Source: a virus. From it: a stretch of DNA of 37,305 nt. The stretch lies in the UHGV virus genome UHGV-0050993; one strand, 5' to 3'. Shown one piece after another: positions 4,487-32,091 of this stretch (positions within the stretch are counted from its first letter, which is position 1; every line of letters begins with the position of its first letter). The translations under genes and the position numbers were made by a program. The notes under the pieces are model-generated. The model did not search any database. It worked only from the letters and a program-made list of their open reading frames with translations, and had not been told where the DNA came from.

Positions 4487-4518
4487 GTTGGTTTTTCTCC
4501 ACGGATTTACTGACAACC

Positions 4519-4550
4519 GAAGCCCTGACTGTTCCCGCAGTTGGGGCTTC
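4519..4550 (+). ncRNA. Candidate sar-like antisense RNA terminator hairpin in arc-ant intergenic region
   Basis: Inverted repeat GAAGCCC...GGGCTTC in the 68-bp arc-ant spacer; in P22 a small antisense RNA (sar) ends here. Hairpin seen in sequence; RNA identity is inference. Confidence 0.3.
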
Positions 4551-4554
4551 AACT

Positions 4555-27262: not shown

Positions 27263-28142
27263 CGTGTTCACCCTCACGAACTTTCAGGTAGGTATTATCG
27301 TTAAGCAGGAAATCAAATCCCTTTTTGTGCCAGACGGTTCCGCGTTGATGGTTTGGACGCTCTTCGAACATCCATCGGCAATTTTCGCCTACGTAGCTCA
27401 AATAATTTCTCCAGTCCTGCATCGTGAACCCATGCCCGTCAAGCTGGCGGGTTATCACTCCGGCTTTGCGCCAGAACGTTCGGATCTGGTTTTTACGCTT
27501 GTCATTCAGTGCGCGGATTCTTGGCGCTTCAGGAAGGATTTCGTGGTAAGCATCGACAACATCCTGACAGCTAACGGAAGGTTTTTTCTTGTCAGACTTT
27601 TTGTCTGCTGTGGCACTCTCTAATACGTCAGTATTAGAGATATTATTTATATTATTGTTTATGGACAACCGTTGGACAACCGTTGGACAATCTCCGCTGA
27701 GAGCCGCGCCATTACTGGTGTTTGCGTTGGACAACCGTTGGACAACCGTTGGACAATTTTTTGACTGAAAATCGTCATATTTAACGATTGTAAACAGGCT
27801 AAATTTCTTCCCCATCGCGCAAATATTAAGCATCCCTTTCGACTCAAAAGTCCGTAATAAGCTCCGAACTTTGTTGTCTGGGATGAATGTTTCTCTGACC
27901 AGCGACGGGCGTCCAGTTATCATCTGACCGCGATCAACAGTTATCGGACCGATATCCGTATTGACGACAGTAGATTCGTGATTAGCCTTGAGGATTAAGT
28001 GAAGCCAAAGATGTACTGCCTGAGAGTCCTTATAGAGCCTGCTGTCCATAAACTGGCGGTGTATAGAGACATACCCCATACTGGATGCCTCCTGATGTTG
28101 TACAGGGTTATGCCTGTAATCAGCTAACTTAACGACGCCCAT
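27252..28142 (-). CDS. Replication initiator (O-like), contains ori iterons
   Basis: 296-aa ORF upstream of helicase; internal iteron repeats encode the repeated peptide CPTVVQRLS, as replication origins embedded in lambda-type O genes. Confidence 0.75.
   Translation of the reverse strand: MGVVKLADYRHNPVQHQEASSMGYVSIHRQFMDSRLYKDSQAVHLWLHLILKANHESTVVNTDIGPITVDRGQMITGRPSLVRETFIPDNKVRSLLRTFESKGMLNICAMGKKFSLFTIVKYDDFQSKNCPTVVQRLSNANTSNGAALSGDCPTVVQRLSINNNINNISNTDVLESATADKKSDKKKPSVSCQDVVDAYHEILPEAPRIRALNDKRKNQIRTFWRKAGVITRQLDGHGFTMQDWRNYLSYVGENCRWMFEERPNHQRGTVWHKKGFDFLLNDNTYLKVREGEHDDR
27661..27757. repeat. Origin of replication: six ~11-bp iterons (TTGGACAACCG) in two triplets, with adjacent AT-rich tract
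   Basis: ATGGACAACCGTTGGACAACCGTTGGACAA at 27661-27690 and again at 27726-27757, separated by 36 bp; AT-rich stretch at 27630-27660. Confidence 0.8.
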
Positions 28143-28290
28143 GTTTCACTCCTGCTTTGGCTAGTCTGTAAACACCAACAAGGCGCTCTGCGAACGCCCT
28201 GTTATTTGCTGCGGCTACCACTAATCCCTCAGGTGAATCAGGGTGTCGAATCTCTTCTTTTTCCTGGTATTTCTTACGACGTTTTGTCAT
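28129..28290 (-). CDS. Small hypothetical basic protein between cII and O-like gene
   Basis: 53-aa ORF (MTKRRKKYQEKEEIRHPDSPEG...) with AGGAGT RBS 6 nt upstream of ATG; not in ORF track (under 60 aa). Confidence 0.45.
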   Translation of the reverse strand: MTKRRKKYQEKEEIRHPDSPEGLVVAAANNRAFAERLVGVYRLAKAGVKHGRR

Positions 28291-28322
28291 AATTACTCCT
28301 GTGGATTGATCCAGTAATTCCC

Positions 28323-28619
28323 TCAGAATTGCATATCAATTTGCTCAGAATCCTCGGTGGCAGCCGGGGATTTTTTCTTTGTGATTCCATCCAATGCATA
28401 CTTAAAAGCCCTGCTAATCGGACTGATGTCTGATGCCATTCCGAAAGCACACAAGACCGAAGCAATAAATCTCCAGTCCGTTCTGCTTATCTTCGATTCA
28501 TGACAGCCAATCATCTTTGCCAGACCGCGCTGGGTAAGCGTTGACAGGTTGATGAGTAAATCAGTTTCAGCGCGATCAATTTCTCGCTGTGTTGGCTTGC
28601 TATAACTTGCTTGTGTCAT
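28323..28619 (-). CDS. cII: CII transcriptional activator
   Basis: 98 aa; ...KISRTDWRFIASVLCAFGM... and C-terminus KKKSPAATEDSEQIDMQF parallel lambda CII (KKRPAATERSEQIQMEF). Confidence 0.8.
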   Translation of the reverse strand: MTQASYSKPTQREIDRAETDLLINLSTLTQRGLAKMIGCHESKISRTDWRFIASVLCAFGMASDISPISRAFKYALDGITKKKSPAATEDSEQIDMQF

Positions 28620-28702
28620 TTGTTAATTTTCCAATAGTGAATAGTTAGTTGAAAGGTATGCGTGGAAACGCATATGGCCTTAGTTGGTCAGATATCTTGG
28701 GG

Positions 28703-28749
28703 CTCGCTTTGTCAGCGACGTAGGACGAATGTCCATTGTGAAAAGAGCG
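28703..28749 (-). promoter_or_regulatory. nutR (boxA-like CGCTCTTTTCACAATG and P22-type boxB TCGCTGACAAAGCGAG)
   Basis: On - strand between cro and cII: boxA-like element followed by hairpin with GACAAA loop, matching the boxB at nutL. Confidence 0.6.
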
Positions 28750-28756
28750 GTGTTAC

Positions 28757-28957
28757 TTATGCAGTTGTTTTTTTGTTACTTGGGAAGGGCTTTATTTCTT
28801 CCGCATAAACGCTTCCATCAGCGTTTATAGTTAAAAAAATCTTTCGGCCTGCATGAATGGCCTTGTTAATCGCGCTTTGATATACGCCGAGATCTTTAGC
28901 CGTCTTGGTTTGCCCAAAGCGTATTGCATAATCTTTCAGGGTTATGCGTTGTTCCAT
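28757..28957 (-). CDS. cro: Cro repressor (lambda type)
   Basis: 66 aa [66 protein letters not shown], near-identical to lambda Cro. Confidence 0.95.
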
Positions 28958-28983
28958 ACAACCTCCTTAGTACAGGCAACCAT

Positions 28984-29047
28984 TATCACCGCTAGAGGTA
29001 AAATAGTCAACACGCACGGTGTTAGAAGTTTATCCCTTGCGGTGATA
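28984..29047. promoter_or_regulatory. Right operator OR1-OR2-OR3 with pR and pRM (lambda immunity)
   Basis: TATCACCGCTAGAGGTA (OR1), CAACACGCACGGTGTTA (OR2), TATCCCTTGCGGTGATA (OR3) between divergent cro and cI. Confidence 0.9.
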
Positions 29048-29054
29048 GATTTAA

Positions 29055-29771
<717 letters not shown>

Positions 29772-29802
29772 TTGTTTTATTTTTCACGTAATAGGATGAT
29801 TT

Positions 29803-30144
29803 ATGACACAATTTCAACTTGCATTAATCGCTAGAGAAGTTGATGGAGAAGTCATCCATCTTCGCACCAAAGACGGATACATCAATGCCACCGCGATGTG
29901 CAAGTCTGCGGGGAAGCTACTTGCTGACTATACACGACTAAAAACAACACAAGATTTTTTTGATGAATTATCACGCGATATGGGGATTCCCATATCGGAG
30001 TTAATTCAATCATTTAAAGGCGGAAGAGCAGAGAATCAAGGGACTTGGGTTCATCCAGACATCGCAATTAATTTAGCTCAGTGGCTATCTCCAAAATTTG
30101 CAGTGCAAGTATCGAGATGGGTGCGTGAGTGGATGTCAGGTTAA
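29803..30144 (+). CDS. KilA-N domain protein (N-terminal fragment of a longer disrupted gene?)
   Basis: 113 aa with KilA-N hallmarks (INATAMCKSAGK...GTWVHPDIAINLAQWLSPKFAVQVSRW); its TAA stop is in frame with the following ORF. Confidence 0.7.
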   Translation: MTQFQLALIAREVDGEVIHLRTKDGYINATAMCKSAGKLLADYTRLKTTQDFFDELSRDMGIPISELIQSFKGGRAENQGTWVHPDIAINLAQWLSPKFAVQVSRWVREWMSG

Positions 30145-30183
30145 AGAGCGCCTGCCGAACTCCCTATCCACCTTAAGCGGTAT

Positions 30184-30562
30184 ATGACAAACCGAGGCAG
30201 AGTTCCTCATACGCACTTTTCTATGCTTAATGAACTGACGTTTAACTTGGTTGCGCCACTTGAACAGGCCGGATATACGCTGCCAGAAAAAATGGTCCCT
30301 GATATTTCAGAGGGTAGGGTTTTCTCGCAATGGCTCCGTGACAACCGGGGGGTTGAGCCGAAGACATTCCCAACATATAACCATGAGTACCCAGATGGCC
30401 GGACATTCCCGGTACGTCTATACCCAAACGAATATTGCAGATTTCAAACAATACTTCAACGAAGTGTGGCTGCCTCAGTACGCTCCTAAATATTTTGCTG
30501 AACGAGACCAAAGGGCATTGACGTTGATTGAGAAAATCATGCTACCTGACCTTGATTCCTAA
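30184..30562 (+). pseudogene. Downstream part of KilA-N gene, interrupted by a +1 frameshift near 30400-30425
   Basis: ORF 30184..30489 is protein-like at its N-terminus and ORF 30251..30562 is protein-like at its C-terminus; the two overlap in adjacent frames, and 30184 is in frame with the KilA-N ORF across a single TAA. Confidence 0.5.
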
Positions 30563-30748
30563 ATGTTATTCCCGGCCACAGAGCCGGGTTTTCTTTGCCT
30601 CACGATCCCCCTCACCCAAGAACACATAACCAATTGTATCTATTTGAAAATAAATAGATACAACTCACTAAACATAGCAGTTCAGATCTCTCACCTACCA
30701 AACAATGCACCCCTGCAAAAAATAAATTCATATAAAAAACATACAGAT

Positions 30749-30811
30749 AACCATCTGCGGTGATGAATTATCTCTAGCGGTGTTGACATAAATACCACTG
30801 GCGGTGATACT
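30749..30811 (+). promoter_or_regulatory. Left operator OL3-OL2-OL1 and promoter pL
   Basis: AACCATCTGCGGTGATG (OL3), TATCTCTAGCGGTGTTG (OL2), TACCACTGGCGGTGATA (OL1); -35 TTGACA (30783-30788), -10 GATACT (30806-30811). Confidence 0.9.
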
Positions 30812-30879
30812 AAACACATCAGCAGGACGCACTACTCACCAGGGCGGTGAATATACAACGATTCAAATATGAATCTACG

Positions 30880-30894
30880 GCGCTGACAAAGCGC
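30880..30894 (+). promoter_or_regulatory. nutL boxB hairpin (P22 type)
   Basis: GCGCTGACAAAGCGC, as I recall the P22 boxB; lambda boxB (GCCCTGAAAAAGGGC) is not present. Confidence 0.7.
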
Positions 30895-31022
30895 AATAAC
30901 CAAAGTGAACTTTGGGGTGAATGCAGAAGCTAACCTTCTCGGCGGAGGCGCTTTGCAATGATTACGCTACCGGAGTTAGTCGCCCGGCTGTATTCACCGC
31001 CAAAGTTCACCAGGAGGTCTAT

Positions 31023-31406
31023 ATGACACGCAGAACTCAGTTCAAAGGCAATTCACGTTCTCGTCGTCGTGAGCGTTTAAAGGCAAAGGCATTAGCTAAC
31101 GGCGTACTGGCCCGCGAAGAAGCAATAAGTTCAGAAGTATTACACCGCCCTACTCTAAGCAGAGCGCAGATTCAGGCTAAAGGTACTCACGAAACGCCTG
31201 AGCGCATAGAAGACGCTAAGCCAATTAAGTTCATGGCACAGGACGTGATCTGGCAACAGAAAGAATACAGACGCAATCTGGAGAGAGCGGCCATTGTGTA
31301 CGCGAATGAGTTTGGACATAAGCAACCAGAAACTGGTGTATGTCTTCCAAATGTAGCTCTTTACGCAGCAGGATACCGGAAATCAAAACAACTGACGGCG
31401 AGATGA
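31023..31406 (+). CDS. N: N-like antiterminator (P22 gp24 type)
   Basis: Arg-rich motif near N-terminus (RRTQFKGNSRSRRRERLKAKA) and C-terminus ...LPNVALYAAGYRKSKQLTAR resembling P22 gp24; AGGAGG RBS before ATG 31023. ORF track start 30921 is an upstream extension. Confidence 0.75.
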   Translation: MTRRTQFKGNSRSRRRERLKAKALANGVLAREEAISSEVLHRPTLSRAQIQAKGTHETPERIEDAKPIKFMAQDVIWQQKEYRRNLERAAIVYANEFGHKQPETGVCLPNVALYAAGYRKSKQLTAR

Positions 31407-31467
31407 CTTGTGTTGGTCGCCAGAAAATGAAATTAGGCAGCAAACCACTTATTTGAGAGGAATTAAT

Positions 31468-32091
31468 ATGTCATCAATCCGCTTAACTACGAGAATGAAA
31501 GAGGAAATCGCTCGTAACGCTTTAATTAAGTCTGGGGTTTTCACTGAACTTGAAGAAGTAACAAAGTTAAAGAACCAGCTTGCACTTGACGCCAGAGTTA
31601 TTGCGTTTGGCGGTAAAAAGAAAACTGAGGAAGTGGATCGGTTATCATCCAAGTTAGCAGCTATAAGTGAAGAACTTGAGAAGATGGGATGTTCATTTTA
31701 CTCATGCGATGTTCGTTCTACTTCGATTTATCTGACTGTATCTGGAAGAAGGGTTGGCTGGCATTCATACGGAAAAGACGGCAACGGTGAAGATATATTG
31801 CTCCCCACCCCAGAAAAAGATAAATGCATGTTTGACGCAGAACACGAAATAACAAAAAGGTTTGATGAAATCTGCGCATTGCAACAAAAACTTGAAGCCA
31901 AGAAAAAGGATATCGAATCAAATGTATGGGCTGCTTTGAACTCAGTCACAACAGTTAAGCGACTTATTGAGGTTTGGCCTGAAAGCAAAGAATTGCTACC
32001 AAAAGAAGCAGATAAAGCAAGTACAGCACTTCCTGCTTTACGGGTAGAAGATTTGAATAAGATGATTGGACTTCCTTCCGAGGCCGCATAG
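31468..32091 (+). CDS. Hypothetical protein, AT-rich moron downstream of N
   Basis: 207-aa ORF (MSSIRLTTRMKEEIARNALIKSG...) with GAGAGGA RBS; visibly lower GC than neighbours; occupies the early-left slot where lambdoid phages carry ral/sieB-type genes. Confidence 0.6.
   Translation: MSSIRLTTRMKEEIARNALIKSGVFTELEEVTKLKNQLALDARVIAFGGKKKTEEVDRLSSKLAAISEELEKMGCSFYSCDVRSTSIYLTVSGRRVGWHSYGKDGNGEDILLPTPEKDKCMFDAEHEITKRFDEICALQQKLEAKKKDIESNVWAALNSVTTVKRLIEVWPESKELLPKEADKASTALPALRVEDLNKMIGLPSEAA

Follow-up and report, generated by a model that had tools for sequence, protein, structure and literature searches.

In phage lambda, the interval between the repressor gene cI and the leftward promoter pL is occupied by rexA and rexB, whose products are expressed together with the repressor in lysogens and exclude other phages by abortive infection, acting as a two-protein membrane-depolarising system. 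The KilA-N/APSES proteins, such as KilA of phage P1, yeast Mbp1 and Bqt4, carry partner domains other than that of the BstA proteins, the abortive infection family whose published function was described by Owen et al. 2021 (PMC8585504). As set out in the sections of that paper on which we draw, BstA is made in the lysogen, from a promoter apparently common with the repressor, and the characterised BstA proteins localise to the DNA of the infecting phage and block its replication. The resident prophage is exempted by aba, a 63-bp DNA element located at −29 to +34 of bstA in the Salmonella prophage BTP1. Every BstA is paired with a cognate aba. Changing one base of the BTP1 aba abolishes self-immunity, and a bstA mutant with a double stop keeps it. 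The same sections mention a few homologues with the N-terminal region alone or the C-terminal region alone, and give no assignment of the domain required for defence (PMC8585504).

We analysed a stretch of viral DNA of 37,305 nucleotides (UHGV-0050993, hereafter the window), which is a P22-like (CUS-3/phiv205-1-like) E. coli prophage with the leftward genes of lambda on the + strand, and which looks complete by ORF tiling. A first-pass annotation made from the sequence had described, between cI and pL, a KilA-N ORF of 113 codons, an ORF in the same frame starting at 30184 and a continuation of the reading in the +1 frame up to 30562, and had proposed that these derive from one ancestral KilA-N protein of about 250 aa that a nonsense codon, together with a frameshift, had disrupted. 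All the coordinates of this layout were confirmed, the second ORF ending at a TAA at 30487–30489 and the +1 reading at a TAA at 30560–30562 (Table 1). The proposed ancestry was equally borne out, as E. coli D5 and phage PhiR5_2 carry in the same position, behind a lambda-like cI and, as in the window, 31 bp after its stop, an intact allele of 253 codons (WP_000191544.1) with 99.4% DNA identity over the cassette. The same place is taken by intact, single-ORF alleles of 253 aa in 15 complete E. coli genomes, besides PhiR5_2. The cassette measures 849 bp in the window and 851 bp in the intact alleles, as determined by megablast against complete E. coli genomes and phages.

Table 1 Features of the cI-to-pL interval and its surroundings in the window.
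Feature	Position	Strand	Basis
cro	28757-28957	-	
pR	29010-28982	-	
cI repressor, 237 aa, HTH_3 and Peptidase_S24	29058..29771	+	ORF; Pfam precomputed for L010
aba positional equivalent, 29 bp upstream and first 34 bp of ORF	29774..29836	+	Position inferred from BTP1
bstA fragment 1, codons 1-113 and premature TAA	29803..30144	+	PF04383; product WP_227164514.1
Nonsense TAA (GAA, Glu114, in intact alleles), interdomain linker	30142..30144	+	Alignments; AlphaFold2 model
bstA fragment 2, ancestral codons 115-211 (211 in part)	30145..30434	+	PADLOC BstA; alignment
2-bp deletion site, codons 211-212	30434..30436	+	Alignments; model
bstA fragment 3, ancestral codons 212-253 and original TAA, now in +1 frame	30435..30562	+	PADLOC BstA
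Intrinsic terminator, stem of 6 G-C pairs then T-run	30571..30598	+	
pL promoter (TTGACA, 17 bp, GATACT) within OL operators	30783..30811	+	
Antitermination protein N, 127 aa, first gene of the pL operon	31023..31406	+	Precomputed PF25694 N_peptide, identical L010 gene

Calling the lesions against the D5/PhiR5_2 allele, we found that the window differs by four changes. At 30142, G to T converts Glu114 (GAA) to TAA. Two base pairs (TC or CT) are lost inside TAT-CTT after codon 211, at a site that can be placed no more finely than 30434–30436; this −2 deletion has the same effect as a change to the +1 frame, so that the frame switch first proposed is real, although it lies 10–35 bp downstream of the interval 30400–30425 to which it had been assigned. 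A C to T change at 30452 replaces His218 by Tyr in the ancestral frame, at a nearly invariant position that is at least 90% conserved across the family. The fourth change, G to A at 29811, is synonymous and affects codon 3, and the product of fragment 1 has no amino-acid change within the KilA-N ORF.

The first-pass annotation gave the locus no family beyond its KilA-N domain, and the assignment to BstA is added here. The intact 253-aa protein matches, over its full length, PHROG 6287, "BstA abortive infection system, replication inhibitor" (E 1.8e-82), and it matches the PADLOC BstA model with residues 120–237 (E 2.5e-20) and the Pfam KilA-N domain with residues 13–112 (E 8e-27). By BLASTP it shares 29% identity with BstA of BTP1 over 133 aa of the C-terminal domain (E 5e-15), the only part of the 253-aa subfamily which detectably resembles BTP1 BstA at the sequence level; the KilA-N-like region of BTP1 BstA was not aligned by BLAST to the canonical Pfam KilA-N domain found here. 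The C-terminal family, PF26567 (BstA_C), is present among the precomputed Pfam hits of a public collection and was not returned by our local Pfam scan. The remains in the window point to the same family. Fragment 1 encodes the full KilA-N domain (PF04383, residues 13–112, 95.8 bits for a cut-off of 23.8, E 1.7e-27), the ORF of fragment 2 (30184–30489) matches positions 160–226 of PADLOC BstA (E 4.3e-12), and fragment 3 matches positions 237–272 of the same model (E 8e-4), with a weak precomputed match to PF26567 for an identical 55-aa ORF. The fragments tile the PADLOC BstA model in order, a similarity that is not due to chance. A weak PADLOC match to the candidate system PDC-S22 (E ~3e-5) covers residues 73–129 of the intact protein, which correspond to 30019–30144 of the window and beyond, and probably reflects a shared KilA-N segment at the end of the domain. 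When the intact and truncated proteins were scanned with PADLOC, BstA and this weak match were the sole results, with no homology to RexA or RexB; the gene shares the slot of lambda RexAB but has no sequence relationship to it.

A search of 5.8 billion proteins returned 2748 homologues of the intact protein. The best 120 clusters, at 56–87% identity, come from Escherichia, Vibrio, Shewanella, Neisseria, Rhizobium and others. In 118 of them a single protein of ~241–311 aa carries both KilA-N and BstA_C; the last two, near-identical and partial, measure 153 and 172 aa. We therefore take the one-piece architecture to be ancestral. A paralogous allele with 77% identity, intact and 257 aa long (PADLOC BstA, E 3e-21), is found in E. 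coli STEC383 and in 116 other complete E. coli genomes; in STEC383 it adjoins hokD and does not lie behind a repressor.

The surroundings of the gene are also those of a bstA locus. As in BTP1 (st313-td), which is likewise P22-like, the order is cro, cI, bstA, then terminator, pL and N, with bstA on the same strand as the repressor, and the two proteins share the KilA-N(-like) plus BstA_C build and the same PADLOC and PHROG families. They differ in that BTP1 BstA is 307 aa long and intact, whereas the ancestral protein here has 253 aa and its copy in the window is in three pieces. The window shows the KilA-N domain, remnants of BstA_C, and a place directly 3' of the repressor, on the same strand and with its own terminator. 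Near-identical loci have cI annotated as encoding a LexA family protein. The gene heads a lysogenic operon which includes the bstA remnant; the terminator closes this cI-bstA transcription unit and pL marks the downstream edge of the cargo slot. The terminator and the surrounding 50 bp (30571–30620) show 92–98% identity in numerous lambdoid and Stx phages whose cargo differs (HK542, HK544, HK244, H-19B, BP-4795 and Stx1/Stx2 phages), in some of which the stretch is annotated as the immunity-region terminator, and sequence comparison thus identifies it as the conserved 3' boundary of the slot. The description of the cI-to-pL interval as a hotspot for exclusion systems also held, since the complete genome most closely related to the window over this early region has rexA and rexB in the slot, behind a cro protein whose RefSeq accession is also that of cro in the window-type modules of strains EC2641 and 1008S19.

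Two features outside the slot deserve mention. The gene that follows N (31468–32091) has, from the identical gene of a human-gut metagenome scaffold (L010), a precomputed match to PF18757 (Nmad5, a putative nucleotide-modification protein), which is unusual for an early left operon. At 4487–4554 lies the sar antisense RNA (Rfam RF00262, 95.6 bits), indicating that a P22-type immI (ant/arc/mnt) region is present. The tRNA and Rfam scans of the window added nothing at the bstA locus itself.

In order to place the lesions on the protein, we used an AlphaFold2 model of the intact allele (pLDDT 87), in which the KilA-N domain (residues 5–111) is connected by a linker (residues 112–121, pLDDT ~63) to a mostly helical C-terminal domain (residues 122–246). 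The Glu114 stop falls inside the linker, and the frameshift coincides with the start of helix 209–226, inside the C-terminal domain. Fragment 2 spans the first two-thirds of BstA_C and is no longer joined to fragment 1. The two domains are thus encoded in one uninterrupted polypeptide in the sibling alleles but not in the window, and, because the single polypeptide is interrupted by the TAA and the deletion, the window copy is best read as a pseudogene of the BstA family and not as a working member. The only sizeable product predicted from the window allele is the 113-aa KilA-N domain, which, unlike the KilA-N domains of P1 KilA, Mbp1 and Bqt4, stands alone, and does so through truncation.

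We consider it likely, on these grounds, that the locus is a pseudogenised, loss-of-function bstA allele. The ancestral gene encoded a 253-aa abortive infection protein of the BstA family, with KilA-N at about residues 5–111, a 10-residue linker and a helical BstA_C at 122–246. It would have been co-transcribed with cI in the lysogen up to the immunity-region terminator just upstream of OL/pL, with an aba element at the 5' end of the locus exempting the prophage's own replication. The G to T change placed a stop in the linker, and the C-terminal domain was damaged further by the loss of 2 bp behind codon 211 and by the replacement of His218 with Tyr. Defence activity would thereby have been lost, since the conserved BstA_C is neither attached nor intact. 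The change at His218, a Thr81 to Ala change in a truncated Klebsiella allele and a further 1-bp deletion in E. coli strain 81 can be read as signs of relaxed constraint, but decay of the KilA-N ORF is not demonstrated in the window allele, as no amino acid is changed there.

The first-pass annotation had left open that the stop and the frameshift were sequencing errors, so that the real gene would be intact, and beyond that general possibility nothing speaks for it. Both lesions are present in 12 other independent loci, taken from independent NCBI genomes and ENA metagenome assemblies. Ten of these (the complete genomes EC2641 and 1008S19, which come from different countries, and eight loci from a contig look-up) have cI-to-pL DNA identical to that of the window apart from two isolated bases outside the gene (29369 and 30712), and the remaining two align to the gene without gaps. 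One of the loci, on scaffold L010, is 100% identical over 3360 bp (window 28101–31460). E. coli strain 81, which we counted apart because it carries additional lesions, also has both. The exact 113-aa product corresponds to WP_227164514.1 in RefSeq and is recorded across 1970 index blocks of public assemblies, with at least 1000 contigs carrying it, and neither lesion lies within a homopolymer. The occurrence of the identical allele in many independent assemblies rules out sequencing or assembly error as the source of the lesions, and we regard the chance of such an error as negligible.

The truncated form is not rare. Its 1970 index blocks compare with 2229 for the intact sibling protein, and 5 of the 22 complete E. 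coli genomes with this allele group carry a truncated copy. However, 7 of 10 sampled window-type contexts resemble degraded prophage remnants, with a truncated N and fused replication genes. In six loci the cII-cro-cI-bstA' module is found in a degraded remnant with N cut to 55 aa and adjoining RecT, Gp157 and integrase genes, the replication genes being fragmentary. These remnant contexts likely explain much of the abundance of the allele, the count of which is therefore probably inflated by vertical inheritance.

Two further truncated forms have a length of exactly 113 aa; the first, in 118 blocks, belongs to Klebsiella-type prophages and the second, in 39 blocks, to Rac-like E. coli prophages. 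In both the same GAA to TAA change is found without the 2-bp deletion, and an open BstA_C ORF of 113 aa follows; we sampled six loci of each type. In all, three different repressor modules are followed by a bstA copy with the Glu114 stop, on no fewer than two distinct haplotypes. Only 2 of 762 bases separate the Klebsiella split allele from an intact allele that is itself widespread (1559 blocks), and the window differs from its own intact sibling by three substitutions and the deletion, whereas the two haplotype backgrounds differ from each other at 20–25 of 762 sites, including position 30141, beside the mutation. Either the same G to T change would have arisen at least twice, or there would have been a conversion tract with its start precisely at the 30141/30142 junction and its end no more than 59 bp away; the same stop codon seems to have arisen at least twice in nature. 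A templated origin of the recurrent change, by a quasi-palindrome or a direct repeat, was considered and rejected, as neither the wild-type nor the mutant sequence has a direct or inverted repeat of at least 6 bp across the nonsense site. The gene is also truncated elsewhere, with products of 69, 81, 93, 124, 144, 175/176 and 239 aa, each on fewer than 100 contigs, so that the Glu114 alleles are by far the commonest. Thr81, replaced by Ala in the Klebsiella truncated allele, is a family-invariant residue of KilA-N.

The recurrence of the nonsense change on a second haplotype, together with an abundance close to that of the intact allele, is not what random decay predicts, and we weighed the pseudogene reading against the possibility that the truncation is adaptive. 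The stop in the linker would then yield a folded, stand-alone KilA-N protein, made from the repressor operon and with its own role, which might compete with or titrate the full-length BstA of co-resident or resident prophages, or bind aba or phage DNA; alternatively, the costly abortive activity would be removed and a useful DNA-binding module kept. The identical codon-114 change on two haplotypes, each near-identical to its own intact sibling, would fit this possibility, given that a stop could arise in the ORF by any of 109 single-base changes, with no nearby repeat to template this one. So would the high frequency of this truncation, the position of the stop in a low-confidence linker, which spares the whole Pfam domain, and the BstA_C frame that is still open downstream in the Klebsiella-type and H6-type alleles. 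However, the two additional lesions in the C-terminal domain of the window lineage and the Thr81 change in Klebsiella both look like decay, the degraded contexts mean that abundance may reflect vertical hitch-hiking, and the roughly 10 other independent truncations make a coincidence of site not very unlikely. A very short conversion tract is also conceivable, and the window-type alleles are almost clonal, which made a selection test on the truncated ORF impossible. The data suggest that truncation at the linker may be favoured, but the number of independent truncations, the Thr81 change and the near-clonality of the window-type alleles mean that they do not prove it, and on balance we regard an adaptive role as unlikely. 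It is decidedly improbable, in our estimate, that the Glu114 stop is convergent and positively selected, turning an abortive infection gene into a lysogen-expressed stand-alone KilA-N gene with the aba DNA kept. If it were so, the prophages would be spared the cost of altruistic suicide and could still replicate in hosts protected by the cognate BstA, with which the KilA-N fragment may even interfere.

Separate KilA-N and BstA_C genes acting together could be a natural layout, as Owen et al. (PMC8585504) note, in the sections used here, a few homologues with one region, and the split alleles of Klebsiella-type and H6-type prophages retain an open BstA_C ORF. These split alleles are, however, one or two bases away from intact ones, which marks them as recent derivatives, the C-terminal part in the window is itself frameshifted, no convincing ribosome-binding site was seen on reading the sequence before ATG 30184 or ATG 30223, and the family is overwhelmingly single-ORF. 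Intact homologues among the best 120 clusters are almost all single polypeptides, and a multi-gene layout is thus very improbable. The three fragments are colinear and close together, which could also allow a full-length protein to be made by programmed read-through and frameshifting, or the gene to be switched by phase variation, as contemplated in the original wording "decaying or phase-variable". Of this pair, decay was supported and phase variation was not. Two separate recoding events would be required, the stop is TAA followed by A, and the deletion site (GAATAT/TGCAG) is neither a slippery heptamer nor a simple-sequence repeat. The gene's only repeat tract, a G6 run at 30346–30351 in the BstA_C part, is unaltered in the window, although 1 bp of it is missing from the strain 81 allele and from the variant of 239 aa, and the intact alleles differ by ordinary point changes. 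Because a G to T transversion and the loss of 2 bp, both in non-repetitive sequence, account for the disruption, we rejected a phase-variable or recoded gene, for which the odds are close to nil.

The positional equivalent of aba, which includes the Shine-Dalgarno sequence AGGA, is retained in the window. Its only difference from all the other alleles examined is the G to A change at 29811, which is unique to the window-type allele. This change may have come first and so account for the loss of bstA, or it may have followed as a neutral substitution. No sequence similarity between the BTP1 aba and the 5' region of the window was visible by eye, and none is expected, because each aba works only with its cognate BstA. 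The stretch kept in the window may act as an aba element, in which case the phage could replicate in cells expressing the cognate intact BstA. In the literature that we searched, work on BstA after 2021 and on truncated alleles consisted of census mentions, and no defence assay of the window allele or of its intact 253-aa subfamily was found.

What is new here is a name and a testable function for the locus, as the family itself is known and the 113-aa allele is already in databases. Taken alone, a known prophage defence gene that has been inactivated is an ordinary result. The similar frequency, in public assemblies, of a broken abortive infection allele and its intact sibling bears on the cost of such genes to the prophage, and on how censuses of defence systems treat annotations such as "KilA-N domain-containing protein". 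The recurrent stop in the linker, together with the retained aba-equivalent, amounts to a natural experiment on which domain of BstA does what.
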